Positions 13,385 to 58,491 of a DNA stretch of 64,000 nt are shown here, one piece after another. The notes under the pieces were generated by a model, which did no database searches, was not told where the DNA came from, and saw nothing but the letters and a program-made list of their open reading frames with translations. This DNA comes from Candidatus Daviesbacteria bacterium (GTDB lineage Bacteria > Patescibacteriota > Microgenomatia > Daviesbacterales > UBA10151), in the NCBI GenBank assembly GCA_028712705.1, contig JAQTPP010000002.1, positions 43,180-107,179 of the forward strand. Reading direction: 5' to 3'. Made by a program: the position numbers and the translations under genes. Positions within the stretch are counted from its first letter, which is position 1. Each line of letters opens with the position of its first letter.

Positions 13385-13503
13385 TCTATTGAATATATCA
13401 AAGATTTCGGTTGTGAAGCAAGAGGGGGAATGGTAAAATTTGTTAGTCTAAGGGTACTTAGCTTCGTCCAGAGGACGACCAGTCTCTGGCTGGCAGCGGC
13501 AGA

Positions 13504-13770
13504 GTGAATTTTAATATGTTTTATGTCTATTTCGCAAAAAGCCTAAGGAACGGTAAAGTTTATGTAGGATTTACATCTAAGAATCCTGTAGATAGAGTTA
13601 ATGAACATAATAGTGGATGTAACCAATGGAGTAAGAATAATAGACCATTTAAACTGATATACTATGAAAGTTTGATTTGTGAAGATGATGCGCGGCAAAG
13701 GGAACGATTTTATAAATCAGGCGTTGGAAAGAAGATTAAGAATTTAATAGTTGAAGGTATGGGTACTTAG
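13504..13770 (+). CDS. Small GIY-YIG nuclease superfamily protein (COG2827-like)
   Basis: 'VYVGFT', 'R..EHN' and a Glu further along: GIY-YIG core. Its 3' end overlaps the first 10 nt of tRNA-Val. A 12-nt copy of the tRNA-Val 5' end lies upstream. Confidence 0.6.
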   Translation: MNFNMFYVYFAKSLRNGKVYVGFTSKNPVDRVNEHNSGCNQWSKNNRPFKLIYYESLICEDDARQRERFYKSGVGKKIKNLIVEGMGT

Positions 13771-13832
13771 CTCAGTGGTAGAGCGCTGCATTCACATTGC
13801 AGATGTCGGGGGTTCAAATCCCTCAGTACCCA
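13761..13832 (+). tRNA. tRNA-Val (anticodon CAC)
   Basis: Cloverleaf folded by hand. Acceptor GGGTACT/AGTACCC, anticodon loop TTCACAT, T-loop TTCAAAT. CCA not encoded. Confidence 0.8.
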
Positions 13833-14126
13833 CAAGTTAGTTCAATCATGTCAATTATACTGTTGCACACCGGGTGTGTGTAAGTCATCTTGACACTTTT
13901 GATCGCAAAAGTGTCCAAAACTCCTGCAAGTGATGTTCGAGCTAAAATCTTGTCTTTGCTCCTCGGGGAGTTTACCCCTCTGGTATTCCTGCACTAAAGT
14001 GCTAGTCAGTACCAGCTTCCCCTGAGTTGCAAATCCTACGATTTTTATACGCTCTCTGCATCAATTGCAGAATGAAATTTTAGTGCATTTGTTCCAAGTC
14101 AAAGATAAAAAAGAACTTTTCAAAAA

Positions 14127-14267
14127 TTATTTTTTCTTTCTAGATTTTTCTCTCTGAGATAAATCACTCGCAGCAACCTTTCTAACTTTTTTTACTTTAG
14201 ATTTTCTAAGTAGTTTAGAAGCTATCTTAGCAATTTTTAGACTTGTAACTTTTTTACCTTTTGGCAT
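14127..14267 (-). CDS. Small Lys-rich basic ORF (46 aa, MPKGKKVTSLKIAKIASKLLRKSKVKKVRKVAASDLSQREKSRKKK)
   Basis: Its ATG overlaps the hsdS stop (TAATG), suggesting translational coupling. Below the ORF-track length cut-off; composition only. Confidence 0.3.
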   Translation of the reverse strand: MPKGKKVTSLKIAKIASKLLRKSKVKKVRKVAASDLSQREKSRKKK

Positions 14268-15649
14268 TAACTTTCACCTCCTTTTTCTACCATTTCTTCA
14301 ACTTTTCTCTTTGCTTCTTCTAAAAGCTCTTTTGATTTCTTTCTTGCTTCATGCGACTTTCTCACCAACTCCGCAATTTTTTCTTGGGTAGTTTTTGGTA
14401 AAATCGGAATTAGTAAGTTTTTAATTTGTTCTGGTTTCCAATGAGCAATAATCGAACCGCCTGCATCTCTTTCAGCTTGCCATTGACCAATCACTGAGCT
14501 AATACATAAAGCTAAATATTCTGGGTCAATATTATCTTTTACTTTAAGCCGTAAAATCCCACCAGAAATAATGCCTTCCACAGCCTCTTTCAAGACATAT
14601 GCAATTCCTGGAGTCGCGTCCTTGGTCAACAAGACCTCTCCTATTTTTGGCTCAAAATCGTTTTGTAATCTTTTATATAACTCTTCACTCAAATACTTTT
14701 GATCTTTATCTTCAATTCCAAATTTAGACAAACTGCTAACTCTAATAAATAATTTTCCTTCTTCTTGATACGCTTTACTCCCGGGCTCAAAACCTTTTTT
14801 CATTGAGACTAAATCACCAAGTAGTTTTGCATTATGTTTTTTAATCTGCTCAACTAATTTTTGATACTTTGGATGAAAGTATTCCGCATCAATACGGTTT
14901 ACAGATTTAACATCTGAAAGATTAACAACAAAACTCAAATCATTTTCAATCTGAAAATTCTTTAATCCTAATTTTTCCAAAAGCAAATCTTCAGCTTGCT
15001 GATAATAAATTTTTGAATCATCAAATGTTTTTTTAGCTGAAATTATTAACTCTTTAATTACGCTTAGTAATTTTTCTTGTGGTGTAGGTATTAAAAGTTG
15101 TGCTATATTACTTATATTCAACTTTGGCTGTGCATTTCCACTAATATTTCTTATAACTTGTAAATACCCTAACTTTGAATTCAAAAATGTTAATAAAAAC
15201 AACTTTTGATCCAAAGTAGTGTTTGCATCTTTAAATTTTATACCAATGTTATTTTCGCTAATATTACAAACTCCAAGTTCTTCCGGAATTGCTGATACTA
15301 CGCCAATTGTATTACCAACTTTAGATATAACTAAGTCAAAAGGATTAAGTTGTGATTGTTTTAATCTATGATTATCTTCCTCAGATATACACACTAAATC
15401 ATCCTCATTAATAAAAAAATCTTGTAAATTACTTACCCTTATAAAGGGGATACCCTTTTCTAAATAAACATCACTTTTAAGAGATGAACCGAACGGACCG
15501 CTAACAACCTTACAACCAAAATCTTCTAGTGTGCTAAATTGTTGTTCCTTAATGCTTTTATCTAATTCCAAATATTTTGGTTGAAAATATTCTGGGTCTA
15601 ATCTATGGACTTCTTCAAGTTGAGATTTTTGGATGATGGAGAAATTCAT
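14267..15649 (-). CDS. hsdS: Type I restriction-modification specificity subunit (HsdS), two target-recognition domains
   Basis: 460 aa. Duplicated TRD architecture with conserved central and C-terminal coiled-coil repeats (family-level recognition). Confidence 0.8.
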   Translation of the reverse strand: MNFSIIQKSQLEEVHRLDPEYFQPKYLELDKSIKEQQFSTLEDFGCKVVSGPFGSSLKSDVYLEKGIPFIRVSNLQDFFINEDDLVCISEEDNHRLKQSQLNPFDLVISKVGNTIGVVSAIPEELGVCNISENNIGIKFKDANTTLDQKLFLLTFLNSKLGYLQVIRNISGNAQPKLNISNIAQLLIPTPQEKLLSVIKELIISAKKTFDDSKIYYQQAEDLLLEKLGLKNFQIENDLSFVVNLSDVKSVNRIDAEYFHPKYQKLVEQIKKHNAKLLGDLVSMKKGFEPGSKAYQEEGKLFIRVSSLSKFGIEDKDQKYLSEELYKRLQNDFEPKIGEVLLTKDATPGIAYVLKEAVEGIISGGILRLKVKDNIDPEYLALCISSVIGQWQAERDAGGSIIAHWKPEQIKNLLIPILPKTTQEKIAELVRKSHEARKKSKELLEEAKRKVEEMVEKGGES

Positions 15650-15654
15650 AAAAA

Positions 15655-16368
15655 TTATTTACCCTTCTTTAAGACTTTAATTATTTCTTTTCCGTCATTA
15701 GACACTATAAATTTAATTACCTCCTCTTCTTGAATAGAGGTTTTGACCGTCATTTTTTTCATAAGCCCTAGACCAATAACTTTTTCTTGTATTGCCTCTT
15801 CCTGTGTTATTGATCTGTTTTCATAAATTTCAATCCATGGTTTTACCAGTCGATGCTTCTCTAATGCCTCAAAAACAGTTTGAGAGAAAGAATCTCTATT
15901 TTCCTGCCATATAAATTTCTGCCTTGTTTGAGAAAATAAAATTGCAAAAATTGTAATAACACTTAAGAAGAATACGATATAACTTAAAGTTTGGATAATT
16001 TCTAAAAATATATTATTATTCAGGTTAGACAAATAAAAAAATACGAGTGAGGCAATGATGCTTAAAGCTATAAGTATCCATGTTATTTTAGTGGTACTTA
16101 TGGCTATTAATGGTTCAGGATAACCTTTACCTCTATCTTTAAATTTACCAAAAGTTAATTGGAGATAAGGCTGAAATTCTATAATTTGCCAAATTATAGC
16201 GCCCCCTGTCATAAAGGAAAGAAACGAAGCAGGTGTAGCCAGTTTTTCATTAATAAATAAGTTAGTTATAAAATCTTTCGTGAATAAGGGAAGTATTGCT
16301 GTAATTAAGGCTACTAACAACCCAAAGGTCGAAATTATAGTTTGAGTAAAATTATCTAATCTTTTCAT
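15655..16368 (-). CDS. Membrane protein (4 predicted TM helices plus a C-terminal soluble domain), unknown function
   Basis: Hydrophobic segments. Sits between hsdS and hsdM in the same orientation. Confidence 0.45.
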   Translation of the reverse strand: MKRLDNFTQTIISTFGLLVALITAILPLFTKDFITNLFINEKLATPASFLSFMTGGAIIWQIIEFQPYLQLTFGKFKDRGKGYPEPLIAISTTKITWILIALSIIASLVFFYLSNLNNNIFLEIIQTLSYIVFFLSVITIFAILFSQTRQKFIWQENRDSFSQTVFEALEKHRLVKPWIEIYENRSITQEEAIQEKVIGLGLMKKMTVKTSIQEEEVIKFIVSNDGKEIIKVLKKGK

Positions 16369-16449
16369 TTTAAGTCTTAAAATTAATCCTTTCTCCGCTT
16401 AAAGATGTTAGATATTCAAGTTGAGATTTTTGGATAATTGAGTAACTAA

Positions 16450-17067
16450 TCATAAATTAAGTGTTTTAACTACCACGAATGTTTCTAAAGCTTTATTCCT
16501 TGTATATTGCCAAAAACGCAGCGATCTATTATGAAACAGACAAGCAATAAAAATAGAAGTTATGAGTAATAAGATTATCTGTAAATTATATGCTACAAAA
16601 AGAACATATATTGATAGAAATATAGACTGCAAAAGGAAAATTATAAACCAGCCTCTATATAAACTGTAATATGCATTAAAAATTTGTACGTGTCCACTAA
16701 TATCTTTTGCAAGAGCAAATACATAACAAAGATTCCATATTTTATCTTCGTCTTGTTTTTTTAGTTTGAAAAATATTTTTGCTTGTTCGAGTATCTCTTT
16801 TTCTTTATCTGTAAACTCTTTTTTGTTCTCTCTAATAAGAAAATTTAGTAAAGGTATCTCATTCAACAAATTTGCTGCGGTTTGAACAACATGACCAAAA
16901 AAATAAGCAACAATAAACCAAACCAACAAAGCATCAAGTTTAAATTCTGGTATTGTAAGGCTATAGAAATAAAAACTATCAAAAATGATTAAGATTAAAG
17001 CGATTGCCCCAACTAACAAATAACCAATTTGGTCATAAAGATTAAATTTTGAAAAAATATTGTTCAT
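16450..17067 (-). CDS. Membrane protein (4-5 predicted TM helices), unknown function
   Basis: Hydrophobic segments. Its start overlaps the stop of the MBL-fold gene by 4 bp (ATGA). Confidence 0.45.
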   Translation of the reverse strand: MNNIFSKFNLYDQIGYLLVGAIALILIIFDSFYFYSLTIPEFKLDALLVWFIVAYFFGHVVQTAANLLNEIPLLNFLIRENKKEFTDKEKEILEQAKIFFKLKKQDEDKIWNLCYVFALAKDISGHVQIFNAYYSLYRGWFIIFLLQSIFLSIYVLFVAYNLQIILLLITSIFIACLFHNRSLRFWQYTRNKALETFVVVKTLNL

Positions 17068-18011
17068 GAGCGATAAAAGGCAATATCTTCTGTATCATTA
17101 AATGGAATATCTGCTATTATTGTTCTAAACTCATGAGTTTTATAAATTGTCGTATTTGGTAAAACCATTTTGTATTTATCTGATGCTCCATTTTGCTCAT
17201 CCTCTTGTTTGCTGTTAGAGAAAACTATGAATTGCGGTTTCATTATTTTTATTGCTTCTTCATGGAATCCTGATTCGTGGCCATGATGCGACGCTTTTAG
17301 AACAGAACATCCAGCAATTTCTTCTTTACAATTTTCAAAGATATCATTCCATACTCGCTCTTGACCATCACCACCAAGTATAATCTTTTTGTTATTAACT
17401 CTAATTAATAACGCATAAGACATCTCGTCTATTTCAACTTGTTCTTTCTTAGAACCATCTTCATTATAATGAGCCATCTTAATGAGTTTTAGAGATGGAG
17501 AAAGAATGGTAATTCTGTCTTCATAATCCTTCCAGTAGTTTCTTGGAGAATCTTCTCTGTAGGTTTTAATAATTCTTAATGTATAACCTTTCCTAATTTC
17601 TTGATAAGTCTCCCAGTCGTTTTGATATTGCTCATTGTAATCTAAATCTTCGGGGACAAATTCGTGTTCTAAATCCCAAAAATTGATAATCTCGAGTTCT
17701 GTATCATTAAAGAGTTTGCTTAATCCATATATATGATCCATGTGTGGGTGGCTACAAATGAATCGAAAGATCGGTTTCAATTTTCCATTAGTATCACGAA
17801 AATCATTAGAATTTTTATAATAATTTAATACATTTTCGTATTCCGCTTGATCGTCATAGTGATTCAAATCGATAAATGTAATCCTTTCTTCCTTAGTTTT
17901 AATAACTTGTCCTTGGTTATTTTTTACCTCACGATAAGGAAAATGAACAATTGTACAATCTCCAGAACCAACATTAAGAAAGTGTATTCTAACTCCCATT
18001 TTTATCTCCAA
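17064..18011 (-). CDS. MBL-fold metallo-hydrolase, ComEC-C-terminal type (predicted nuclease)
   Basis: 'IHFLNVGSGDCTIV' resembles the ComEC MBL signature 'hFLDVGQGDa'. HxHxDH motif 'SHPHMDH'; 'ASHHGHESG'. Overlaps hsdM by 10 bp. Confidence 0.65.
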   Translation of the reverse strand: MEIKMGVRIHFLNVGSGDCTIVHFPYREVKNNQGQVIKTKEERITFIDLNHYDDQAEYENVLNYYKNSNDFRDTNGKLKPIFRFICSHPHMDHIYGLSKLFNDTELEIINFWDLEHEFVPEDLDYNEQYQNDWETYQEIRKGYTLRIIKTYREDSPRNYWKDYEDRITILSPSLKLIKMAHYNEDGSKKEQVEIDEMSYALLIRVNNKKIILGGDGQERVWNDIFENCKEEIAGCSVLKASHHGHESGFHEEAIKIMKPQFIVFSNSKQEDEQNGASDKYKMVLPNTTIYKTHEFRTIIADIPFNDTEDIAFYRS

Positions 18012-19966
18012 AAACTAAAATTTTGCTCCTTTGCAAATTTAATGAAAGCATCAGCTATTTGATCTAAATCATGATCTAAAGCTTTATTTCCCTTACTATC
18101 AAAAGTTATTTCTCCTTTTTCATCTTTTTTATAGACATAATCTCCGGAATTATCTTTCCCACTTCTCCTAGAAACAGCCATAAAGATTGGGTAATCCTCT
18201 AAAGGTTTTTCACCTTCCGTCCATTTTTGCAAAAATAATACAGATGTCTTTGTGCCTGTGTGTGGTTTAAAAGTATTAACCTGTAACCCTACAACTGCCA
18301 AAATTCTGGCCTTATCAAAAATCCAATTCCGGATATATTCCATATTAGTATTATTCAAAACTCCTTGTGGCAAAACTATGGCTAATCTGCCACCAGGCTT
18401 AATTAGATTCAAAGCTCTTTCAATAAATAGAATATGACGTTCCATTTTATTGCGCAGTTTGCCTTTATCATTTTTAGCCAGTTCATAGGCATTTAAAACA
18501 GTTCTATCTATAATTTCACCGGCAAATGGTGGATTAATTAAAAGCATATCAAAACCAAAATACTTAAAATACTCCTGGTTTTCCTTATCTTTGTCATAAT
18601 CGTTAAATCTTAATAGCCTTTGTTGTAGTTCCGCCCTAGCTTTTAATTTTTCGCTATCATCACCTTGCCATTCTTTTGGATTTAGAGAATTTAATTTAAA
18701 AATATGCGACCTGCCATCACCTGCAATAAGCATTAAAGCCCGGGAAATTTTGACCGGTTTATCGTCAAAATCTATTCCGTAAATATAGTTTCTTGCATAA
18801 TCTATTCTAGTATCGCGAGAGACGTTCTCCGGCATATTACCCCAAACCCATTGCATAGCGTGGATTAAAAATCCGCCAGATCCGGAAGCGGGGTCTGTTA
18901 CATACTCATCTTTTTTGGGATTTAGCATTTTTACTGCCATATCAATAACATGACGGGGAGTAAAATATTGGCCCCTGTTACCCTTGGCAACATCCGGAAG
19001 TAAGTACTCAAAGGCTCGATCTATGATTTCCAAATTAGCATCAAGCAATTTAACTTTTTCAAATTCCCCTATGCAAACAGAAAGATGCGTTGGGGACAGT
19101 CTTATTGTTTCACCCGGCAAAAACATACCCGGCCATTCTTTTTGTGAATTTTCGAATAATCTACTTATATTGTCATAAGTAATTCTTGGATCTTTTGACT
19201 GGCGGAAAAGTAGCTCGCCATGTCTATCTCTGGCATACTTCTCATCATAGAGTTTTGCATAAATAAGTTTAAAAATTTCATTAAAAGAATCCTCTCCTGC
19301 ACCTGCCAGAACTAATTCCTCTAAAACCTTAATCACCCTTACTAAATCAAATTTTGTTTCAAGTTGATCAAGCGTAAGTTTTTCTTCCAGAACATCATCT
19401 ACTGTCTGATTTGATCTGGGAATATCACGCAAAGTATTTTCAAATTCATGAGGGTAAGGTCTATACAAAATTACTTTAGTTACGCCGTTTGATAAAACTC
19501 CGATTGGAGCACCTTGCGCATTTAGATAACTTTTTACTTGTTCCAATCCGTCTTTTGCATCCGGACTTTTGATTTCTAAAATTATATGAGGTGTTTCTTT
19601 GTCTTCGTCGTAAACTACAATATCTGCTGCTTTTTCGCGTATCTCCCTTCCAAAATTTACTGATTTTTCAACAGCTATTCTTTCGTAAGAGTAGTTATAA
19701 GTTTTGTTTAGTCTATAAAGCCAAAGCTGGCGGACAATTTCTTCAGGTTCGCCAGCTTGTTTTTCTTCGCTCCATATAAACAAATCTGTGTTTCTTTTAA
19801 AACATTTAAGGTAAAATTTGCCTTTTTCTTTTTCAAATATATCTAAAATTTCTGAGGGGTTTATTTTTTCAAACTCTGTAAGGCCAAATTGAACATCTGG
19901 CCTACGAAAAATTTTATTGACGATCTGTTCTGTTATACTCTTAGCCATTAATTTTACTCTTTCCAA
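18002..19966 (-). CDS. hsdM: Type I restriction-modification N6-adenine DNA methyltransferase subunit (HsdM)
   Basis: Motif I 'DPASGSGGFL' and motif IV 'NPPF'. HsdM_N-like N-terminus. The true start may be the Met at 19948, which leaves a 4-nt gap after the lexA stop. Confidence 0.85.
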   Translation of the reverse strand: MERVKLMAKSITEQIVNKIFRRPDVQFGLTEFEKINPSEILDIFEKEKGKFYLKCFKRNTDLFIWSEEKQAGEPEEIVRQLWLYRLNKTYNYSYERIAVEKSVNFGREIREKAADIVVYDEDKETPHIILEIKSPDAKDGLEQVKSYLNAQGAPIGVLSNGVTKVILYRPYPHEFENTLRDIPRSNQTVDDVLEEKLTLDQLETKFDLVRVIKVLEELVLAGAGEDSFNEIFKLIYAKLYDEKYARDRHGELLFRQSKDPRITYDNISRLFENSQKEWPGMFLPGETIRLSPTHLSVCIGEFEKVKLLDANLEIIDRAFEYLLPDVAKGNRGQYFTPRHVIDMAVKMLNPKKDEYVTDPASGSGGFLIHAMQWVWGNMPENVSRDTRIDYARNYIYGIDFDDKPVKISRALMLIAGDGRSHIFKLNSLNPKEWQGDDSEKLKARAELQQRLLRFNDYDKDKENQEYFKYFGFDMLLINPPFAGEIIDRTVLNAYELAKNDKGKLRNKMERHILFIERALNLIKPGGRLAIVLPQGVLNNTNMEYIRNWIFDKARILAVVGLQVNTFKPHTGTKTSVLFLQKWTEGEKPLEDYPIFMAVSRRSGKDNSGDYVYKKDEKGEITFDSKGNKALDHDLDQIADAFIKFAKEQNFSFWR

Positions 19967-20555
19967 GTATACCTACAATTTTACCTAATAATCTAGTCTC
20001 CGGATATATTGGAATATTTTTATACCTTGGATTCTCCGGTTTTAGATAAACCTTGCCATCATCATGAACAAATCTTTTGACTGTTGTTTCGTCATCATTT
20101 CTTGCAAGCACAATATCCCCATTTTTAAACTCTTTAGCATTCCTTACAATTACTATATCTCCATCCTCAATATTAGCCCCTATCATAGAATCACCGCTAA
20201 TTCTTACCAAACGATCGCTGGAGGTAACTTGTACATCGTCTGTTACACGCCATTCGTTAATTTCATAAGTTTGCATATATGGTCCGGCTGCACTTACTCC
20301 AACTACAGGAGCCATTTGTTTTAAACCTAACTCCTTAATACCTTTATCCAAAATTCTTAAGCCTCTTGCCATGCCTTCCGCTTTTTCTATATAACCCTTG
20401 TCTTCCAGGAGTTTTAATATATCTAAAACTGCTTGATTAGAGGAAACTTCAAGAGCGTCACGTAGTTCTGCTAAAGTTGGGGGATAACCGGAATCTGAAA
20501 TGGATTTGTAAATAAGTTTTAAGACTTCGGCTTGGCGGACAGTAATTTTATCCAT
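19941..20555 (-). CDS. lexA: LexA repressor (wHTH plus S24 peptidase)
   Basis: N-terminal winged HTH. Ala-Gly cleavage site 'SAAGP'. 'GDSM' Ser box and catalytic Lys region 'VKRF'. Confidence 0.8.
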   Translation of the reverse strand: MDKITVRQAEVLKLIYKSISDSGYPPTLAELRDALEVSSNQAVLDILKLLEDKGYIEKAEGMARGLRILDKGIKELGLKQMAPVVGVSAAGPYMQTYEINEWRVTDDVQVTSSDRLVRISGDSMIGANIEDGDIVIVRNAKEFKNGDIVLARNDDETTVKRFVHDDGKVYLKPENPRYKNIPIYPETRLLGKIVGILGKSKING

Positions 20556-20569
20556 GACTAATCTATAAT

Positions 20570-20587
20570 ACTGACTAAATAGTCAGT
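20570..20587. promoter_or_regulatory. Candidate LexA operator: near-perfect palindrome ACTGACTAA-ATAGTCAGT
   Basis: 18-bp palindrome with 8 of 9 arm positions symmetric, 15 nt upstream of the lexA start. Not the E. coli or Cheo consensus. Confidence 0.35.
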
Positions 20588-20752
20588 TTGTCAAGAAGTA
20601 ATTTGTCCATTTTTCTTGCCTAATTATTGCACAGAAGAGGTCGGGAATAAAGATCGGTCCACCTCGGAGTCAAAGCCCACCTTCGAGGTGTTGTTAAATG
20701 GGTTGGGCAGAAGTGGAAGTTTGGCTCATTTTGAAGTAGAATATCCAGATTA

Positions 20753-22987
20753 ATGAAACAAGTTGTTGTAGCGCTTCTGGTAATAATAACTATAATTAGT
20801 CTTCTGGTAATTGCCTTCACCGTTAATCAGGTAGGGGAAGAAGAACAAAGGCTTAAATCTGATTTGCAATACCGGTCTACCCTTCTTGCCGAAAGCCTGA
20901 AAGAAACAGTCGAACCAAATTTTATTAATAAATCAGAAAACTACTTACAGGATGTAGTAGAAAGGTTTGCTAATAAAGAAAGGTTTGCAGGATTGGGGAT
21001 CTATGACAATAAAAATAAAGTTATTGCGGTTTCCTCTACCATCCCCGAGGCCACCTCTGCTGCTTCCGAGATAGTTGCCAATGCTATGGATGCGGATAAA
21101 GCAAGCGGAGATTTTGAAAAATTTGCGAACAAAAAAATGTATGTTTTGGCAATACCTTTACATGATGACAAAAGCATAGTGGGCGCCTTAATGGTGGTAC
21201 AAAATGCCGGTTATATTGATGACCGCTTAAACGAAATCTGGAAAAATAATCTTATCAGATTACTTATTCAGGCATCACTACTCTCTCTTGCTACAGTTCT
21301 TCTGATACGCTGGATTATTTACAGACCAATCCGGGGGTTGGTTGAGACATTAAAATTAGCAAGAATGGGAGGAGTGGAACAAAACCCCAAAGGCTTAACA
21401 AACTCTTTTTTCTTTCGACCCCTTGTTAAAGAAATTTCCAATATGAGAAGCAGTTTAATGGAGGCCAGAATTTCAGCCAGCGAAGAGGCCAGGCTGCGGT
21501 TGGAAAAATTAGATTCTCCGTGGACAGCAGAGAGATTGAAGGAATTTATCAAAGATATTTTAAAAGGAAGGACTATTTTTATGGTTTCCAACAGGGAGCC
21601 TTATATCCACACAAAAACAGGGAGAAAAATCGATTATTATTTTCCGGCCAGCGGTGTGGTCACGGCAATTGAGCCGGTGATGCGGGCTTGCGGTGGGGTC
21701 TGGATTGCCCATGGGAGCGGTGATGCAGACCGGTTGGTTGTTGATAGCAGCAGCAAAATAAAAGTTCCGCCCGATGAACCAAAATATGTACTGCGGCGTA
21801 TCTGGTTAACCGATAAAGAAGAAGCGGGTTATTATTACGGTTTTTCCAATGAAGCATTGTGGCCTCTTTGTCATATAGTTCATCAGAGACCGACTTTTAG
21901 AAAAGAAGATTGGGAAGAATATAAAAAAGTCAATCAAAAGTTTGCCGATGTTATCATTTCCGAAATAAAAAACCAAGATCGGCCGATTGTTTTAATTCAA
22001 GATTTTCACCTGGCTTTGGTTCCGAAAATGGTCAAGATGCAAAGATCAGGGGCTGTCGTAGGGATTTTTTGGCATATTCCCTGGTCAAGCCCGGAATCTT
22101 TTAGTATCTGCCCTTGGAAAAAGGAAATTTTAGACGGCATGTTGGGAGCAGATCTCATTGGCTTTCAGACTCAACTTCATTGCAATAACTTTATTGAAAC
22201 GGTCGGTAGAGAACTTGAATCCCTCATAGATTTTGAACGATTCGCAATTACCAGAAGTAACCATATCTCTTATGTCAAACCATTTCCAATCAGTATTGCT
22301 TTTCCAAACGGTTTTGATAAAGCAAAAGATCTGGACGGAAAAGAAGAAAAAGAGCGCTTACTCAAGAGCTTAAGGATCAAGACTAAATATATCGGGCTGG
22401 GGATTGACAGGCTTGATTATACAAAAGGAATTCTGGAACGGTTTAAAGCAATTGAGGTTTTCCTAAATAAATACCCACTTTACAAAGGTAAATTTACCTT
22501 TGTCCAAATTGCCGCCCCCAGCAGAACCAGAATTAAAAAATACCGTGATTTTGCAATCGAGGTAGAAAACGAAGCGGAAAGAATTAATGCTTTATTTAAA
22601 ACAAAAGCCTGGCAGCCGATTATACTTTTGGTAAAACATCACAGCCACAGCGAAATCCAGAAATTTTACAGAGCTACAGATTTTTGTCTGGTGACATCCT
22701 TACATGACGGAATGAATCTGGTGGCAAAAGAATATGTGGCCTCAAGATATGATGAAAAGGGAGTTTTAATTTTGAGTCAATATACCGGTGCTTCAAGAGA
22801 GTTGAAAGATGCCTTGATTGTTAATCCCTACAACGGAGAACAAACAGCAGATGCTATAAAGAAAGCGCTGGAGATGACCGCAAAAGAGCAGACTAAAAGG
22901 ATGCGCAGCATGAGGGAAATAATCAAAAATTATAATGTTTACCGCTGGTCGGCAGAACTTTTAAAGACTATAGTCAATTTAGGGTAA
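20753..22987 (+). CDS. otsA: Trehalose-6-phosphate synthase (GT20, OtsA) with an N-terminal membrane/sensor extension
   Basis: The C-terminal ~470 aa carry GT20 motifs ('VSNREPY', 'YYYGFSNEALWPLCH'). The N-terminal ~270 aa have two TM helices flanking an extracytoplasmic segment. Confidence 0.8.
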   Translation: MKQVVVALLVIITIISLLVIAFTVNQVGEEEQRLKSDLQYRSTLLAESLKETVEPNFINKSENYLQDVVERFANKERFAGLGIYDNKNKVIAVSSTIPEATSAASEIVANAMDADKASGDFEKFANKKMYVLAIPLHDDKSIVGALMVVQNAGYIDDRLNEIWKNNLIRLLIQASLLSLATVLLIRWIIYRPIRGLVETLKLARMGGVEQNPKGLTNSFFFRPLVKEISNMRSSLMEARISASEEARLRLEKLDSPWTAERLKEFIKDILKGRTIFMVSNREPYIHTKTGRKIDYYFPASGVVTAIEPVMRACGGVWIAHGSGDADRLVVDSSSKIKVPPDEPKYVLRRIWLTDKEEAGYYYGFSNEALWPLCHIVHQRPTFRKEDWEEYKKVNQKFADVIISEIKNQDRPIVLIQDFHLALVPKMVKMQRSGAVVGIFWHIPWSSPESFSICPWKKEILDGMLGADLIGFQTQLHCNNFIETVGRELESLIDFERFAITRSNHISYVKPFPISIAFPNGFDKAKDLDGKEEKERLLKSLRIKTKYIGLGIDRLDYTKGILERFKAIEVFLNKYPLYKGKFTFVQIAAPSRTRIKKYRDFAIEVENEAERINALFKTKAWQPIILLVKHHSHSEIQKFYRATDFCLVTSLHDGMNLVAKEYVASRYDEKGVLILSQYTGASRELKDALIVNPYNGEQTADAIKKALEMTAKEQTKRMRSMREIIKNYNVYRWSAELLKTIVNLG

Positions 22988-46190: not shown

Positions 46191-46784
46191 ATGTTAGAAA
46201 GTGAATTTGAAAGACTATGGAGATGGGCTCCGGTTCCCGATGAAGTTCGTAAAGAAAAAGGCGCTTGGAATTATGGGTCTCCTGGTAATAATTTTACTGG
46301 AACTGATAATGAGCGAGAATCCGAACTTTCGTTGTCTGATATTCGAAGATTAAATTCTAGGTTTACTGAAGGACCAACGAGAAGATTACGGCCGTATGTA
46401 ATAAAGGCAAACCCACTTTTTAAAGAGCAATCAGGCAAAGAGGAATCAGATGAAACACCCGGACAGTCTAAATACGTACTTAGAGAAGGAAGATGGGCAA
46501 TTACTGTAGCAGGAAGAATAGCTAGACGACCAGATAGTCATGATCATAATTGGGTGGTGAAGCATAAGGACGAAGGAACTCTACCAAGACCAGTAAAACT
46601 GATGCGATCTATGAAGAGAGATGGTTTTATGCCAGAAGATTGGCCAGTAGAAAATGTATCAAGAGATCCTTTAGAAGGTCCGTGGCAAGTAGGAGGAAAA
46701 ATTACTGTATTTAGTTCCCATGCTGAATGGGAGGATCTTGACGCTGGTTTCATTGCAAGATCCCACAAAACTCCAAAGACTTAA
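46191..46784 (+). CDS. Hypothetical protein
   Basis: 197-aa ORF with no recognisable motifs. Its 3' part is overlapped antisense by the recombinase ORF read-through. Confidence 0.35.
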   Translation: MLESEFERLWRWAPVPDEVRKEKGAWNYGSPGNNFTGTDNERESELSLSDIRRLNSRFTEGPTRRLRPYVIKANPLFKEQSGKEESDETPGQSKYVLREGRWAITVAGRIARRPDSHDHNWVVKHKDEGTLPRPVKLMRSMKRDGFMPEDWPVENVSRDPLEGPWQVGGKITVFSSHAEWEDLDAGFIARSHKTPKT

Positions 46785-48435
46785 TAAATCGATAGATTTT
46801 GCTTGGTTGAATTGATATAATTTTATAGTTTGCTGCCAAGTCTGACTTGGTTGGTATATTTGACGCGCCGCGTTCGTCTAGTGGCCTAGGACGTTGGGTT
46901 TTCATCCCAGAAATCACGGGTTCGACTCCCGTACGCGGTACCAAATCCCGAGTTAGCGGGGCGGCGCAGAGCGCCGCCCATGGGTTTAGAGCTCCACAGC
47001 AAACTATTTTGTCGGTGAGCTTGAGGTTCGAGCCGAAGATTTTTTGTGCAAGTACCTTTTTTGCTTCCATGTCTTCCCCCCTTGCGGTATTAGCTGCGTT
47101 AGCAGCTTCCACTATCCAGTTTTTGAAAGGTTCGAGCCAAACATTTTGCGTTTGTTGAAAGCGGAGGATTTGTTCTTCTAACGTCTTCTTTTTAGATAAC
47201 AGTTCAGCTTTTTTGTTAAGGTAAGAATCTCTCTCAATATCCTGGTCAAGGTATGAATCAAGAAGACGTTGAAGTTTATCATTTAAACTTCTAATCTCCG
47301 CTTGTTTCTCCTCAACAAACGCATGGCAGGATTGGGCTACATTTTTTTCTTCTACAGATAATCTATCCAGCATTTTATCTGCCCAATCCTGACGCAAAGA
47401 AACTGATGCAATATTATCTGAAAGCTGTCGATCAAGTTCCTCCTGCCTAATAAAAGGTTGATTACATTTAACAGTTTTGGACTTTTTCGTACATCTGTAA
47501 TACAAATAGGTGGCATGATGATTTGTTTCCTTATAAAATTTTTCCTTAAATTCAGCCGTAATCATCATGCCGCACTGCCCGCAGCGAAAAAGTCCCAGGT
47601 ATGGTTTTAAAACAAGAGGTTTTTTCCAAGACCTGCTTCGTTTCCTCCATACCTCTTGTACGCTATCCCACAGTTTCTTTGAAATGATCGGCGTATGTTT
47701 TCCTTCGTGGATCTCGCCCCAATATTTAAAATGGCCATAGTAGAAAGGGTTAGTTAAGATCTGTTTAGTTACTCTATCAGCTTTCCATTCCTGTCCTTTT
47801 CTGGTCACTATGCCATTTTTAGCCAAAAAGTCCCGGATATCCATTATCCGGTAGTTACCGGTAGCAAACAGTTCAAAAGCCTTTTTAACAATAGTAGCCC
47901 GCTTTTTATCCAAAACTATAGTTTTGATAAGGAGGTCGTTAAGGTAGCCAACAGGAGGGATACCAGGATATATACCATTTCTGACTTTTTGGCGTAAACC
48001 TCTTTTGGTGTTTTCTGAAAGCGAGTCCACGAAGTATTTGCTTTGCCCAAATGCGATGGTGAGCATAAATTTTCCCTGGGGTGTAGCATCAAACCAGAAT
48101 TGAGGAAACTTAAGATACTTAATTTTACCGGTATCAATAAGATAAATAATTTTGCCGCCATCCACACTATTTCTCGCAAGTCTGTCAGGATGCCAAGCTA
48201 AAATTCCATCTGCTTCCCCGGCTTCAATCCTTTCGATCATACTGTTAAAAATAGGCCTGCCAGGGATTTTAGCTGTCTGCTTTTCAACAAGCTCTTCTAA
48301 GATAATAATACCTTCACGCTTGGCATACTCCCTTAGCTCTGTAATTTGAGCAACAATTGATAAAGCCTGCTTATCTTCTACGTCTGTAGACTTGCGGGCA
48401 TATAAGAACATTTTATTCGTATTTGTAATACTCAT
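46750..48435 (-). CDS. Large serine recombinase (resolvase/invertase catalytic domain, recombinase domain, zinc ribbon, coiled coil)
   Basis: N-terminus 'LYARKSTDVEDKQALSIVAQ' with catalytic Ser, 'DRLARN', a Cys-rich zinc ribbon ('CGQCG...C..C') and a C-terminal coiled coil. The ORF's 3' end reads antisense through IR-L and tRNA-Glu, so the real C-terminus is uncertain. Confidence 0.8.
   Translation of the reverse strand: MSITNTNKMFLYARKSTDVEDKQALSIVAQITELREYAKREGIIILEELVEKQTAKIPGRPIFNSMIERIEAGEADGILAWHPDRLARNSVDGGKIIYLIDTGKIKYLKFPQFWFDATPQGKFMLTIAFGQSKYFVDSLSENTKRGLRQKVRNGIYPGIPPVGYLNDLLIKTIVLDKKRATIVKKAFELFATGNYRIMDIRDFLAKNGIVTRKGQEWKADRVTKQILTNPFYYGHFKYWGEIHEGKHTPIISKKLWDSVQEVWRKRSRSWKKPLVLKPYLGLFRCGQCGMMITAEFKEKFYKETNHHATYLYYRCTKKSKTVKCNQPFIRQEELDRQLSDNIASVSLRQDWADKMLDRLSVEEKNVAQSCHAFVEEKQAEIRSLNDKLQRLLDSYLDQDIERDSYLNKKAELLSKKKTLEEQILRFQQTQNVWLEPFKNWIVEAANAANTARGEDMEAKKVLAQKIFGSNLKLTDKIVCCGALNPWAALCAAPLTRDLVPRTGVEPVISGMKTQRPRPLDERGASNIPTKSDLAANYKIISIQPSKIYRFIKSLEFCGILQ
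46867..46943 (+). tRNA. tRNA-Glu (anticodon TTC), CCA encoded
   Basis: Acceptor GCCGCGT/ACGCGGT, anticodon loop TTTTCAT, T-loop TTCGACT. Its last 20 nt are repeated at 63223-63242. Confidence 0.8.
46939..47019. repeat. 81-bp perfect inverted repeat, left copy (partner 48840-48920)
   Basis: Exact reverse complement verified by hand. Overlaps the last 5 nt (TACCA) of tRNA-Glu. Contains the GC hairpin GGCGGCGC-AGA-GCGCCGCC. Confidence 0.85.
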
Positions 48436-48486
48436 AAAATAACCTTGAACCCTGTCGGGTATAAAAAGAATTTTTGCGATAAATTA

Positions 48487-48640
48487 TTGGCAGTTTGTTC
48501 CATATCTTTTGTGAAAGCGGATTGACTCCGCTTTCACTTAAATGGCCACCTTGGTGATCTCAACCGGTGAAGGTTGTCCAAGATGGCCATTAAAAAACTC
48601 CACCGAATGTTGAGATCGCAAACATATTACAAACTGCCAA
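48487..48640. promoter_or_regulatory. Complex palindromic site upstream of the recombinase gene (candidate recombination site / regulatory region)
   Basis: 12-bp IR TTGGCAGTTTGT/ACAAACTGCCAA. It encloses a 10-bp-stem hairpin (48511-48537) and a ~50-bp imperfect palindrome AATGGCCACCTTGG...CCAAGATGGCCATT centred on AACCGGT (48541-48591). Confidence 0.4.
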
Positions 48641-48839
48641 AAGAAAATACAATATAGCAAAAATTCAATTGCGCATTTAGGCAAAGTTTCCCCACCTTAA
48701 GTGGGGAATTATTGATTTATATTTATATAAAAATAAGCAAAGCTTTTCTTTTTGCTTTGCAAAAAATAAAAAATCGCAAGGGGAATTAAAATTTCAAAAA
48801 AAGGTACTGCAATTAAAAGAATCTTGGGCTTTCTGTTTC

Positions 48840-48920
48840 CTCACCGACAAAATAGTTTGCTGTGGAGCTCTAAACCCATGGGCGGCGCTCTGCGCCGCCC
48901 CGCTAACTCGGGATTTGGTA
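48840..48920. repeat. 81-bp perfect inverted repeat, right copy
   Basis: Reverse complement of 46939-47019. Abuts and overlaps by 3 nt the 184-bp IR copy A. Confidence 0.85.
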
Positions 48921-49101
48921 GCGATCTATGATATCGCTCGGACTTATTTTATCAGGAATTATTAATCGGCGCATCGTATCGTTACGCTTCGGCCGGCTAA
49001 TCGCCGGCCTTGCTAATCACCGACGTATCGGTTCGCTCCGCTCAGGCCGCCTTCGGCGGCCTTCGCTTACCCCGATTCAATCGGGGCTTAAAACTAATCT
49101 T
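48918..49101. repeat. 184-bp perfect inverted repeat, copy A (partner 62667-62850); GC-rich with at least 4 internal hairpins
   Basis: Exact reverse-complement match verified by hand. Internal hairpins include GGCCGGC-TAATC-GCCGGCC, GGCCGCC-TTC-GGCGGCC, CCCGA-TTCAA-TCGGG and GCGAT-CTATGAT-ATCGC. Confidence 0.85.
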
Positions 49102-49215
49102 ATCTTTGGAAATTTTCGCATTTTCTATCCTATCTTTCTGTCTGTTTTATTTTGAGTAGCTTTTGTCTAAAGAGCACTTTTGTTACTCAAACAAAATGTC
49201 TGTTATACTTTATTT

Positions 49216-49980
49216 ATGTCTCAAAATTTTTATGATAAGGTAGCTAAAAAATTTGGTGGTTATGGATATGGTAATGGAAGGAAACCTCAGTATAAAAGCG
49301 AATACCCAGCGGGCGATCCTGAAAGGATTTTTAAAGAAAAGCTATTGGAGTTAAGTTCAAAAGATAAAACGGCACTGGATAGTGGGTGCGCTGACGGCAA
49401 ATTTACTCTTTCTATTGCTCCCTATTTCAAAAAAGTGTACGGGATTGATATTTCAAAGGAAAATTTGAATGTTGCAAATAACCACAGAGCTGATGAGAGA
49501 AGTAAAAATGTTGAATATTCTTTTCAAAACGCAAAACATACCTCATTTGAGGATTCTTTTTTTGATATAGCATATTGCAGGAGAGGACCTACTTTTTACA
49601 AGGAGTATCACAGAATTCTTAAAACCGGTGGATATTATCTTGAAATTGGAATAGGAGAGATGGATACAATAGAGCTAAAAAAGATATTTGGCAGAGGGCA
49701 AGGGTATGGAGAATGGGATAAGTCAAAATTGGATGAAAACTTAAAAGAAATAAAGAATCTTGGTTTTAAGGTTATTTTTGCAGAGAATTTTTATCCCTTT
49801 GAATACTATCCTTCTTCCGCGGAGTTTGATTTATTTCTACATCAGGTACCAATTTTTGAAGATTATGATTCGGAAAAAGACGAGGTATCACTGCAAAAGT
49901 ATGTTAAGAAATTTTCAGCCGATAAAGGTATTATGCTTTCGCGTCACCGGTTGGTAATGGTTGTACAAAAAGTCAGTTAG
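49216..49980 (+). CDS. Class I SAM-dependent methyltransferase (Methyltransf_11/25-like)
   Basis: Motif I 'LDSGCADGKFT'. No DPPY/NPPF motif, so probably not a DNA N6/N4 methyltransferase. Start taken at the internal Met of the 49180 ORF. Confidence 0.65.
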   Translation: MSQNFYDKVAKKFGGYGYGNGRKPQYKSEYPAGDPERIFKEKLLELSSKDKTALDSGCADGKFTLSIAPYFKKVYGIDISKENLNVANNHRADERSKNVEYSFQNAKHTSFEDSFFDIAYCRRGPTFYKEYHRILKTGGYYLEIGIGEMDTIELKKIFGRGQGYGEWDKSKLDENLKEIKNLGFKVIFAENFYPFEYYPSSAEFDLFLHQVPIFEDYDSEKDEVSLQKYVKKFSADKGIMLSRHRLVMVVQKVS

Positions 49981-49994
49981 ACGATTTTCTCGTT

Positions 49995-50750
49995 TTATTT
50001 TTCGTAAATTCTGATTGCTTGCCGATATTTACAAAAGTCACAGTCGCTACCACTATTGGGTAGTTTTTCAGATTTTAAACATTCTATAGCATCGAAAATA
50101 GTTCCTTCAACCCAGCTATCGTCTCCTTCGTATGGAAGAATTTTAATATCAAATTCCAGTTTGGCATCAAAAGCTGCTTTGTCTGTATTGCCATTGCAGT
50201 AAACAAAGTATCCGGTATTTGAAACTTTGAAACAGTTTTTCCTAAAAAGCCACTGGTATATTTCCATCTGCCTTTTATAGCCAATTTGCCACTCGGCATT
50301 GAGGGTAACTTCTTCATCTTTGGCAGTAGCCTTGTAGTCAACTATGATTAGTTCTTTTTTGGGATTAACCCAAAGATCATCAATTCCCCCTGTTACCAAG
50401 ACATTACTGTGATCTATTTTTAAAGTTATTCCACCCCGTAGAGAATCTCTCCACTCATCCAACTTTTCGTGAGCCATAGGGACTGCATCAACTTTGTAAT
50501 GTTTCATCAAAGGATGGGGAGTACCATTTGCACGATGAATATCAAACTCTTTTTTTAACAATTTATCTACAGCAGAATTAAGGGAGAAGGGATACCCAGG
50601 CGGTTGAGCAACTCCTAATTTTCTATCAAGGTAAAAACATCTTGGGCAATTTAAATATAAATCAATTTTTGACCTGCTCAAACGAAATAATTCTTTAGAA
50701 TTCTTATCATATAAATTTCTTTTCCTACTTGGATTGTAATATTTAGACAT
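49995..50750 (-). CDS. Cas4-like/RecB-family PD-(D/E)xK nuclease with 4-Cys cluster
   Basis: N-terminal 'CPRC'; 'GGIDDLWV' (D), 'IIVDYKATAK' (D-x-K), 'QMEIYQ' (QxxxY); C-terminal 'C-x11-C-x2-C'. Start at the Met 4 nt after the upstream gene's stop. Confidence 0.65.
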   Translation of the reverse strand: MSKYYNPSRKRNLYDKNSKELFRLSRSKIDLYLNCPRCFYLDRKLGVAQPPGYPFSLNSAVDKLLKKEFDIHRANGTPHPLMKHYKVDAVPMAHEKLDEWRDSLRGGITLKIDHSNVLVTGGIDDLWVNPKKELIIVDYKATAKDEEVTLNAEWQIGYKRQMEIYQWLFRKNCFKVSNTGYFVYCNGNTDKAAFDAKLEFDIKILPYEGDDSWVEGTIFDAIECLKSEKLPNSGSDCDFCKYRQAIRIYEK

Positions 50751-53583: not shown

Positions 53584-53584
53584 A

Positions 53585-53668
53585 TTATTCTTTATTATTT
53601 TCTACAATCGCAATTTCTTCCTGCGTTAGGCCGTAGAGTTTATAGACAAAATCGTTAAATTCAAACAT
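53585..53668 (-). pseudogene. 27-codon ORF (MFEFNDFVYKLYGLTQEEIAIVENNKE) resembling a DNA methyltransferase C-terminal tail; possible gene remnant or coupled micro-ORF
   Basis: 'LYGLTxEEI' is a recurring C-terminal tail of N6-adenine methyltransferases/type IIG enzymes (recollection). Its stop sits 1 nt before the ATPase start codon. Confidence 0.25.
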
Positions 53669-53831
53669 ATTAAATAATCACTTGCGCATAAATTTTTCTT
53701 CAAATATGTCATCAAAAACGGTTTCATTACTTTTACGGTAAATGGCATACCAATAATTTTTATCCATTTATCATGAGTTAGTAAGTTTCCGTATAATAGA
53801 CATTAAAATTTTGCTTATTAGTTTCCATATA

Positions 53832-58430: not shown

Positions 58431-58491
58431 AGTTTAGATCAATTCTAGCAAAATTCTTTGATTTAAGATAGGAAGAAATTAAACTTGAGAT

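Follow-up and report, generated by a model that had tools for sequence, protein, structure and literature searches.

How does a restriction-modification (R-M) operon of Type I appearance work without hsdR, and what is the role of the metallo-beta-lactamase (MBL) gene and the two membrane-protein genes that lie between its methylase and specificity genes? These questions are raised by a locus of a Candidatus Daviesbacteria bacterium, which we analysed within a window of 64,000 nucleotides (GenBank assembly GCA_028712705.1, contig JAQTPP010000002.1, positions 43,180 to 107,179 of the forward strand; positions below count from the first letter of this window). Patescibacteria, or candidate phyla radiation (CPR) bacteria, are episymbionts with tiny genomes and are thought to be poor in defence systems. 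The reading that we favour, at a probability of roughly 65%, is that the locus is a LexA-repressed, HsdR-independent R-M operon with a cargo slot holding two independent units. Confidence in the operon architecture and in the independence of the cargo is high.

The MBL, TM2 and methylase proteins encoded here are 100% identical to NCBI entries for Candidatus Daviesbacteria. According to the list of open reading frames (ORFs) and the sequence, the locus is a co-directional set of seven genes on the minus strand (14127-20555), inside a low-GC block. An earlier sequence-only reading had given the order lexA, hsdM, MBL, two membrane-protein genes, hsdS and a small Lys-rich ORF, all on one strand between tRNA-Val and otsA; this order was confirmed, each gene being present as an ORF and domain scans supporting the labels. 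We refer to the hsdM product as RM and to the two (trans)membrane proteins as TM1 and TM2. In the direction of transcription, the features are as follows (aa, amino acids).

20565-20594, minus strand: sigma-70-type promoter, with -35 box TTGACA at 20589-20594, an 18-nt spacer and -10 box TATTAT at 20565-20570
20570-20587, no strand assigned: palindromic operator, a putative LexA box, ACTGACTAWWTAGTCAGT, which occupies the promoter spacer
19941-20555, minus strand: lexA (TIGR00498, LexA_DNA_bind, Peptidase_S24)
18002-19948 (ATG start, 648 aa) or 18002-19966 (TTG start, 654 aa), minus strand: RM subunit, the hsdM of the sequence-only reading
19418-19747, minus strand: nuclease (HSDR_N_2) domain of RM, motif D109...E125-x-K127 (numbering of the 648-aa form)
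18014-19027, minus strand: N6-adenine methyltransferase domain (gamma class) of RM (Pfam N6_Mtase, Eco57I; motifs DPASGSGGF and NPPF)
17064-17999 (ATG start) or 17064-18011 (TTG start), minus strand: MBL gene, gene A of cargo unit 1
16450-17067, minus strand: TM1, 205 aa, gene B of cargo unit 1
16370-16453, minus strand: relic ('ghost') hsdS start, a direct repeat (D1) of the real hsdS 5' end
15655-16368, minus strand: TM2, 237 aa, cargo unit 2
14267-15649, minus strand: hsdS, 460 aa (Methylase_S; PADLOC Specificity_I)
14127-14267, minus strand: Lys/Arg-rich ORF of 46 aa, status uncertain

The label hsdM proved to be half right. In Pfam, RM joins a full-length HSDR_N_2 domain (aa 74-183, 1.8e-20), the PD-(D/E)xK nuclease fold found at the N-termini of restriction enzymes, to an N6_Mtase domain (aa 314-651, 2.9e-36). 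Residues D109, E125 and K127 are invariant in an alignment of 31 homologues (67-92% identity) and in another of 26 more distant ones; invariant among RM homologues are likewise methylase motifs I (DPASGSGGF) and IV (NPPF). RM matched the PADLOC methylase model MTase_I PDLC03034 across its full length (8e-178), and scored 38.6 bits with the hsdM model TIGR00497, the cutoff of which is 243. Its top sequence match in the PDB was RM.BsaXI (8w0p, 1.6e-26), a Type IIB enzyme; in this alignment the D...E-x-K residues line up, in a weak N-terminal segment. Foldseek with an AlphaFold2 (AF2) model of RM also placed BsaXI first (7.9e-16), the Type I M subunits being nine orders of magnitude weaker (1e-6), and additionally returned the nuclease-methylase fusions DrdV, BpuSI and LlaBIII. 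The model is confident for residues 1-310, with a predicted local distance difference test (pLDDT) score of about 80-95 in the nuclease domain. Hence the N6_Mtase methylase implied by the label stands, and the plain HsdM does not: the protein is a predicted PD-(D/E)xK nuclease-methylase fusion nearest to BsaXI. We call the N-terminal domain a nuclease because of the Pfam HSDR_N_2 match, the invariant D...E-x-K and the full-length BsaXI match, and have moderate confidence that RM cuts DNA.

The partner subunit fits this picture. HsdS has two target-recognition domains (TRDs), seen as two Methylase_S stretches in Pfam and as Specificity_I in PADLOC (1.3e-54); its identity to the S genes of related loci is 24-57% overall, single TRD halves reaching 73%. 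As the sequence-only reading had stated, no hsdR is visible in the window: no HsdR-like gene was present among its large ORFs. Nor did an HsdR-like ORF recur in the surroundings of 87 related loci (0.81 Mb), where the other ORFs of at least 600 aa numbered 18 and ResIII occurred in 2 (one of them a Z1-domain protein on the opposite strand). Because RM carries its own PD-(D/E)xK nuclease and is accompanied by a two-TRD S subunit, hsdR does not appear to be truly missing. RM and S plausibly constitute a complete HsdR-independent R-M system with the parts list of Type IIB. By analogy with BsaXI and BcgI, a complex of RM and S would methylate host sites and cut nearby unmethylated DNA without ATP-driven translocation.

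The interval between RM and hsdS was then compared across related operons. Metagenome contigs scanned with the RM alignment yielded 80 loci (RM identity 55-79%), and 84 when TM2-derived loci were added; slot statistics refer to the 56 loci with complete RM and S, and cargo to ORFs of at least 80 aa. The distance from RM to S was -10, 3 and 69 bp in three of the 56 loci and 257 bp in a fourth; all others had 452-2273 bp, and the window, at 2352 bp, has the largest. Within the slot, 63 ORFs fell into 46 sequence clusters, and many of the 46 representatives had no match when scanned. The families that were matched include Schlafen/AlbA_2 (3), DUF4145, which is PD-T7-4 (2), trypsin-like proteases (2), and further DUF6119, NYN, KAP NTPase, DUF3800, PD-T7-1, PD-T7-5, PDC-S45, PDC-M04A and LmuA, as well as OLD/AAA_15/AAA_21 ATPases with matches to Old, AriA, PtuA, AbiLi and mad3. 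In relatives whose RM is 88% and 91% identical, the slot holds either a Bro-N protein or three ORFs (one of 161 aa, one of 340 aa and one for a UvrD/PDDEXK protein); such different cargo beside closely related RM genes argues for fast cargo turnover. The borders of the slot are strongly conserved, with DEIAEAFIKFAKEQKFSFW at the RM C-terminus and xTYSIIQKSQLEGAxRLDAE at the HsdS N-terminus, the latter also at the DNA level. By this comparison the RM-to-hsdS interval is a hypervariable slot for predicted foreign defence genes, and the view of the hsdM-hsdS interval as a hotspot for defence add-ons extends to the whole family (63 cargo proteins in 46 clusters). The particular three-gene insert did not recur: none of the 80 metagenome RM-S loci contains MBL, TM1 or TM2.

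That this insert has a composite history is indicated by a remnant within it. In the gap that separates TM1 from TM2 lies a partial copy of the hsdS 5' end, a 41-nt direct repeat (D1) that includes 21 identical nt. The relic ATG overlaps the TM1 stop codon (ATGA) and opens 13 codons, M-I-S-Y-S-I-I-Q-K-S-Q-L-E (16415-16453), which agree with the family HsdS N-terminus xTYSIIQKSQLEG before the sequences diverge. In all, the relic ORF has 27 codons, fills the gap and ends one base before the TM2 ATG. Three other loci have the same arrangement, in which a truncated hsdS start (13-33 codons) separates a cargo A from a cargo B, with the real hsdS behind them:

L115, 3755-3805: relic hsdS start
L146, 5910-5975: relic hsdS start
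L117, 2397-2500: relic hsdS start

In the window and in these three loci, homology between the relic and the real hsdS of the same locus extends over about 40-65 nt. A relic hsdS start behind TM1 implies that MBL-TM1 formerly abutted hsdS, and that TM2 came later together with a new hsdS 5' end. As judged by these remnants, MBL-TM1 and TM2 are two separately acquired units, taken up stepwise. Precisely such a relic with new cargo would result if a circular cassette bearing a copy of the conserved 5' segment of hsdS recombined with that segment by a single crossover.

MBL, the first gene of cargo unit 1 and predicted to encode a DNase, has intact H-P-H-x-D-H and HHG motifs, both invariant in 27 sequences. 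Its description as a ComEC-type MBL was upheld: the best solved relatives found with the family profile were C-terminal MBL domains of ComEC (9ic4, 1.4e-9; 30bt, 7e-7). Against TIGR00361 (ComEC/Rec2) it scored 14.4 bits, for a cutoff of 190, matching the MBL part only and having no TM segment itself. Its NCBIfam matches (6A-MBL, Avs1a and ComEC) were all below cutoff. In PADLOC, residues 27-292 matched PDC-M48B (PDLC04675, 4.2e-14; PDLC04673, 1.3e-12) and, more weakly, the MBL components LmuA (Lamassu) and RTasMBL (DRT). At E<=1e-30 the family comprises 27 clusters among 1.84 billion representatives and is spread, at 30-58% identity, over Patescibacteria, Saccharibacteria, Bacteroidota, Desulfobacterota, Bifidobacterium, Elusimicrobiota and Methanobacterium. 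Since viral contigs and plasmids gave distant relatives only (<=24% and 28-35% identity respectively), the module is not obviously phage- or plasmid-borne.

In approximately 30 of 43 MBL loci from bacteria and archaea, a protein of 160-260 aa with 3-4 hydrophobic helices is encoded directly adjacent, on the upstream or the downstream side and nearly always on the same strand. TM1 has about four hydrophobic helices, as does TM2, in keeping with the two membrane proteins of the sequence-only reading, and tblastn found TM1 homologues beside MBL in L006, L007, L018 and L019. A modest match linked TM1 to Csx27 (PDLC01605, 2.4e-5; aa 6-178 against positions 2-180 of the 206 in the model), which the L006 orthologue matched at 1.3e-8. 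Directly, TM1 had no match to the PDC-M48A models at E<=1. A hidden Markov model (HMM) iterated from TM1 collected 22 partners, every one MBL-adjacent; among those it reached were the PDC-M48A-type proteins beside MBL in L001 and L003 (1e-53 to 1e-56); the MBL partner in L001 is PDC-M48A at 2e-67, and the L001 MBL is 52% identical to that of the window.

The settings of these pairs are varied. L001 belongs to a conjugative element that also encodes an E2/E1/JAB protein and another MBL, L003 lies next to HigB/MqsA toxin-antitoxin genes and L005 near a transposase. In a Paceibacterota locus (L006:268-4476), the order is N6_N4 methylase, BsaWI-like endonuclease, MBL, Csx27-like four-TM protein and second N6_N4 methylase, the pair thus being bracketed by a BsaWI-like Type II R-M system. 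Among 126 neighbours of MBL loci the N6_N4 DNA methylase is commonest (7), followed by Methylase_S, transposases, E2/E1/JAB and ArdC, and the RM-S system of the window was found in none of the MBL plus four-TM loci from many phyla. Judged by these neighbourhoods, MBL and TM1 form an autonomous two-gene module that is often placed among DNA-modification genes. The suggestion of an Hsd-embedded independent system consequently holds for MBL-TM1, with about 30 loci lacking hsd genes, and fails for the three genes as one unit, TM2 being separate.

Two of these loci have further features. In L001 (5000-9912, with MobA/TraG), a 6A-MBL-type set of a 377-aa MBL and an E2/E1/JAB fusion lies directly upstream of the PDC-M48A/B pair, which is followed by an ArdC anti-restriction gene and a Type III-like R-M system. 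In the Patescibacteria locus L011 (8628-10918), a 216-aa S24-peptidase protein is encoded 4 nt upstream of the four-TM and MBL pair, with a ParB-methylase gene divergent; a LexA DNA-binding domain is not recognisable in this protein. S24-type regulators may have become linked to the four-TM and MBL module more than once.

As for function, work by Makarova and colleagues from 2019 is said, in the papers that cite it, to describe Csx27-family proteins as predicted single-stranded DNA (ssDNA) channels whose genes accompany components of the transformation machinery. The charged central loop and the basic C-terminus of TM1 suggest that both are cytoplasmic and might offer a dock for MBL, which has no signal sequence. 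MBL-TM1, a translationally coupled pair of a cytosolic hydrolase and a membrane protein, could then act as a membrane-docked DNase on incoming DNA or as a damage-induced second-line effector. A literature search on PDC-M48 returned nothing relevant, and our confidence in an anti-phage role of MBL-TM1 and TM2 is moderate to low.

Cargo unit 2 has a far narrower distribution. TM2 has only 17 homologues, and those with a named source are from Patescibacteria. It is the sole RM-to-S gene in L088 and follows a DUF4145 gene in L090; in L086 (Moranbacteria) it is preceded by a Type II R-M system consisting of an N6_N4 methylase with an MvaI/BcnI endonuclease. The AF2 model (pLDDT 71) shows, at moderate confidence, four TM helices and a small C-terminal domain rich in beta structure, and Foldseek found no PDB match to it below E=0.5. 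By its homologues and neighbours, TM2 looks like a Patescibacteria-specific, R-M-associated membrane protein.

We next consider how the operon would be controlled. The protein encoded by its first gene matched TIGR00498 at 1.4e-47 (162 bits, cutoff 111) and combines a winged-helix LexA_DNA_bind domain with a self-cleaving Peptidase_S24 domain (Pfam). The Ala-Gly cleavage site (A90-G91), Ser123 and Lys160 are invariant in an alignment of 14 operon LexAs. Upstream of lexA lies the best promoter match within 13400-20800 (11 of 12 positions), in the spacer of which the operator reads ACTGACTATTTAGTCAGT at 20570-20587. Of 49 loci, 46 have this operator 5' of lexA, always 32-34 nt from the ATG and with the consensus C(T/A)GA(C/A)(T/C)A-AAT-(A/G)GTC(G/A)G; its arms co-vary, being CTGAC...GTCAG in some loci and CCGAC...GTCGG in others, and the order TTGACA, palindrome, TATAAT is common to related loci at the same position. 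The GAC(T)-N4-(A)GTC palindrome recalls the GAAC-N4-GTTC box of Gram-positive bacteria. With a position weight matrix (PWM), the operator of the window scored 20.6-24.9 and shuffled sequence gave 0-3 sites at >=12; no second site scoring at least 12 was found in the 64-kb window, and in 0.8 Mb of related loci sites scoring at least 14 are almost confined to lexA upstream regions. The sole notable operator-like palindrome away from lexA, CCGACCATAGCGTCGGG in L133 (1428-1445, score about 16), lies approximately 60 nt upstream of a gene for a 644-aa P-loop ATPase and 2.4 kb from lexA. Only 9 nt separate the end of the -10 box from the lexA ATG, with no Shine-Dalgarno sequence visible (20556-20570), and the message may be leaderless.

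The association of lexA with RM is widespread. In 55 of 75 related loci with usable upstream sequence lexA is immediately upstream of RM; the remaining 20 have other upstream genes, often RadC-like. An RM subgroup (L103-L121, L124, L134 and L135) was observed without lexA or operator, and several of its upstream genes end in RadC/JAB-like C-termini. Of three RM relatives checked at 85-91% identity, two have contigs that reach upstream, both with lexA-RM and with neighbours unlike those of the window. lexA-RM-S is a widespread Patescibacteria operon, and we are fairly confident of its predicted control by LexA. No intrinsic terminator was detected across 13400-20800; with an operator in the promoter spacer and no terminator in the operon, one LexA-autorepressed transcript is the simplest reading. 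LexA would repress its own gene and all downstream genes from the single promoter, and DNA damage, by way of RecA-stimulated self-cleavage of LexA, would release the R-M and cargo genes from repression at the same time. The earlier suspicion of SOS control or autoregulation thus gains support from a conserved operator placed inside the promoter. A study of the Patescibacteria SOS network was reportedly made by Sanchez-Osuna, Barbe and Erill in 2017 (Environ Microbiol 19:3465); if it lists the lexA-RM-S operon, the LexA coupling is already known. Our literature search on LexA and R-M in Patescibacteria, or on hsdMS and LexA, gave nothing relevant.

The seven genes are closely packed, and the block has a distinct composition. 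RM overlaps lexA by 8 nt with the ATG start (as in the NCBI protein P0138) or by 26 nt with the TTG start, so that of the two junctions proposed before, the 26-nt overlap holds and the 4-nt gap does not. The RM/MBL junction, which likewise departs from the earlier description, is a 10-nt overlap (TTG start) or a 2-nt gap (ATG start). MBL and TM1 overlap by 4 nt (ATGA), the 81-nt gap between TM1 and TM2 was recovered, 5 nt lie between TM2 and hsdS, and hsdS overlaps the Lys-rich ORF by 1 nt. GC content at third codon positions (GC3) is 0.13-0.26 in all seven operon genes, lexA (0.249) being in line with the island, compared with 0.34-0.41 in otsA, otsB, lepB and parB. By this shared low GC3, the whole seven-gene block looks like one imported unit. 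The Lys-rich ORF had no family match in Pfam, PADLOC or NCBIfam. Small basic ORFs 3' of hsdS also occur in L090, L119 and L129, most loci having something different or nothing there; comparison of the related loci gave no shared family, and we rejected the ORF as a conserved one. It may be either genuine or an artefact of A-rich sequence.

Taken together, we favour the following model. In the basal, LexA-limited state, an RM2S-type enzyme would methylate the host and cut unmodified incoming DNA. An infection escaping restriction would cause breaks or stalled replication, RecA filaments would form, LexA would cleave itself and the whole operon would go up, yielding more restriction enzyme together with the cargo effectors, i.e. 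the ComEC-type DNase with its Csx27-like partner, and TM2. The cargo units would act independently and not as arms of the R-M enzyme.

Several points weigh against this model. In its methylase half the AF2 model of RM is of low quality (mean pLDDT 62, predicted template modelling score 0.41), so that the fold match to BsaXI counts as local similarity. A profile of the N-terminal 300 aa had no match at E<=1 among PDB sequences, and the nuclease fold assignment is therefore not independent of the methylase part. An HsdR may be encoded elsewhere in the genome, the search window being 64 kb. The operator was seen only at lexA, in sampled sequence that lacks classical SOS genes, and LexA may govern either a wider SOS regulon or this operon only. 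Proteins rich in TM segments can inflate iterative HMM searches, although here every partner was MBL-adjacent. To our knowledge, the Csx27/ComEC-like module is a computational prediction only, and PDC-M48 a candidate defence system. Finally, CPR bacteria are not readily cultured.

Three other explanations were weighed. The sequence-only reading had proposed M2S without a nuclease, with MBL and the two membrane proteins as a replacement effector (nuclease plus membrane-disrupting module) that M2S would direct in place of HsdR. The tight packing of the genes between M and S, including the ATGA overlap of MBL and TM1, would suit this, as would the precedent of PrrC, an effector that lies inside a Type I system and is under its control (PMC12707154). 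However, the M protein owns a conserved PD-(D/E)xK domain and resembles BsaXI, RM lies directly beside S in three loci, the three inserted genes occur in 0 of 80 metagenome RM-S loci, pairs of MBL and a four-TM protein occur without hsd genes in many phyla, and MBL-TM1 is split from TM2 by the relic hsdS start. This proposal is largely refuted and we consider it very improbable.

A second view would have RM and S methylate only, the N-terminus being degenerate or DNA-binding, with lexA a housekeeping SOS repressor that is upstream by chance and the inserts mere passengers. Databases do name the protein 'N-6 DNA methylase', its N-terminal domain alone lacks a PDB sequence match, and LexA is above the equivalog cutoff for a bona fide LexA. 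The D...E-x-K triad, however, is invariant at 67-92% identity and in more distant homologues, which argues for a retained active site; the TRDs of S vary in the way known from active R-M systems (S identity 24-57%, RM identity 55-79%), recognisable defence genes fill the slot and lexA has the codon composition of the island. This view is unlikely. Somewhat different is the idea that MBL-TM1 is a DNA uptake or scavenging device feeding nucleotides to an auxotrophic CPR cell, with the R-M system vetting the imported DNA. The ComEC C-terminal domains as best solved relatives of MBL speak for it, as does the ssDNA-channel prediction for the Csx27 family, which the papers citing the 2019 work tie to natural transformation. 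Yet the pair is sporadic and horizontally scattered, at 40-58% identity, over Patescibacteria, Bacteroidota, Desulfobacterota, Bifidobacterium and Methanobacterium, is found in mobile or defence contexts (the conjugative element with E2/E1/JAB, toxin-antitoxin genes, transposases, R-M) and, unlike a housekeeping uptake system, is missing from all 80 related Patescibacteria RM-S loci. We regard uptake as quite unlikely.

The model of a LexA-repressed operon with a cargo slot can be extended, tentatively, to one in which lexA-RM-hsdS is an SOS-gated, integron-like platform. The 40-65-nt 5' segment of hsdS would be the recombination site, at which cassettes would stack in Campbell style and leave relics; all would come under one LexA-repressed promoter, so that cheap basal restriction is combined with costly effectors (here a membrane-docked ComEC-type DNase) that are held back until DNA damage reveals a failure of restriction. 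We think this extension possible, though on balance doubtful. If it were true, ultra-small bacteria would possess an integron-like organiser of immunity and a catalogue of candidate defence genes.

On the side opposite tRNA-Val the operon is flanked by otsA/otsB (Glyco_transf_20, 4.8e-118; Trehalose_PPase). Convincing att-like direct repeats flanking the island were looked for against tRNA-Val and not found, and an Rfam scan gave no RNA other than this tRNA. Overlapping the tRNA-Val 5' end by 10 nt is an 88-aa GIY-YIG ORF (13504-13770) with a GC3 of 0.258, in line with the R-M island; on either side of it lies a copy of a 15-nt direct repeat taken from the tRNA 5' end (13449-13463 and 13758-13772), and it may be a small insertion of the homing-endonuclease type. 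A second low-GC island (GC 0.27-0.34) occupies 46750-59295 on the minus strand, adjoining tRNA-Glu (46867-46943), and looks like an integrated element or a further defence island. The tRNA gene bordering the operon and the genes of the second island are:

13761-13833, plus strand: tRNA-Val(CAC), at the distal edge of the low-GC block (ARAGORN; Rfam, 73.8 bits)
46750-48435, minus strand: large serine recombinase, second island
49995-50882, minus strand: PDDEXK_1 nuclease, second island
50743-53583, minus strand: SMC_N-like ATPase, 946 aa, second island
53832-58430, minus strand: SF1 (superfamily 1) helicase, 1532 aa, AAA_11/AAA_12 with a topoisomerase-type zinc ribbon, second island
58492-59295, minus strand: staphylococcal-nuclease homologue, second island

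If the favoured model is true, a genome-poor lineage could concentrate its immunity in one place, combining a compact restriction enzyme that needs no translocase, a repressor that senses damage and a slot whose defence genes change fast. The slot itself can serve as a discovery tool, 56 loci having yielded 46 protein clusters, most of them unannotated. The locus would also provide a natural setting in which to test the PDC-M48 or Csx27-ComEC-type module, and would let one ask whether the SOS response is an alarm that escalates anti-phage defence.

Among known systems, the R-M core is closest to the Type IIB enzymes BsaXI and BcgI, with which it shares an N-terminal PD-(D/E)xK domain and a gamma-class N6-adenine methylase in one chain, a separate HsdS-like subunit with two TRDs and the lack of a translocase. 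It differs from BsaXI in length (648 aa for the RM of the window, 916 aa for BsaXI), overall identity being about 20%. Type IIB enzymes such as BsaXI and BcgI are characterised by S-adenosylmethionine-dependent, ATP-independent cleavage on either side of a bipartite site. We know of no lexA leader gene and no cargo between RM and S for either enzyme. With Type I systems the operon has the gamma N6-adenine methylase and the two-TRD HsdS in common; HsdR was not found among the large ORFs of the window or, as a recurrent gene, around the related loci.

A known case of a foreign gene inside an hsd operon is PrrC, which is embedded in the Type IC locus EcoprrI and guards the R-M system (PMC12707154). 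Both EcoprrI-PrrC and RloC resemble the present operon in having foreign defence genes inside an hsd operon next to hsdS. They differ in that no HsdR was found among the large ORFs of the window, in that the cargo of the slot is far more diverse (46 clusters for 63 proteins), and in that the cargo of the window family gives no sign of sensing the state of the R-M enzyme. A likeness to the methylation-associated defence system MADS (Maestri et al., 2024), of which Mad4 is a DUF4276 Toprim protein (PMC12065111), is also apparent: RM and S match MAD2 and MAD5 best in NCBIfam, the gene numbering of PADLOC and NCBIfam puts mad3 and mad4 between mad2 (methylase) and mad5 (S gene), and the cargo protein of one relative matches mad3. 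Membership was rejected, the scores being 306.9 bits for a cutoff of 720 (NF047738) and 172.6 for 400 (NF047740); among the seven operon proteins, a PADLOC scan hit mad2 and mad5 only and none of mad1, mad3, mad4 and mad6-8.

The first cargo unit resembles PDC-M48 in that MBL is of the PDC-M48B type and TM1 joins the PDC-M48A-type partners by iterative HMM; it differs in that TM1 matches Csx27 and not the PDC-M48A models, and in the reversed order of the genes, MBL being first. With the Csx27 family it shares a four-TM protein of about 200 aa paired with a ComEC-type component. DNA methylases as commonest neighbours (7 of 126), and the presence of E2/E1/JAB, echo the themes of competence, ubiquitin-like and DNA-modification genes that the 2019 work of Makarova, Gao, Zhang and Koonin (FEMS Microbiol Lett fnz088) is reported, in the part of it that citing papers convey, to have raised. 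Apart from the Csx27 match, neither cas13b nor another CRISPR component was found by PADLOC among the seven operon proteins, a scan that did not extend to tandem repeats or to cas genes across the window. Compared with ComEC/Rec2, the MBL of the window is without the competence channel domain. Each layer of the locus has a precedent, be it the Type IIB core, the embedding of genes as in PrrC and MADS, or the PDC-M48/Csx27 pair. Apparently undescribed, as far as we have checked, are a hypervariable slot found family-wide in a LexA-led, HsdR-less R-M operon of the CPR, the relic hsdS starts that document the stacking of cassettes, and the combination of cargo present in the window.

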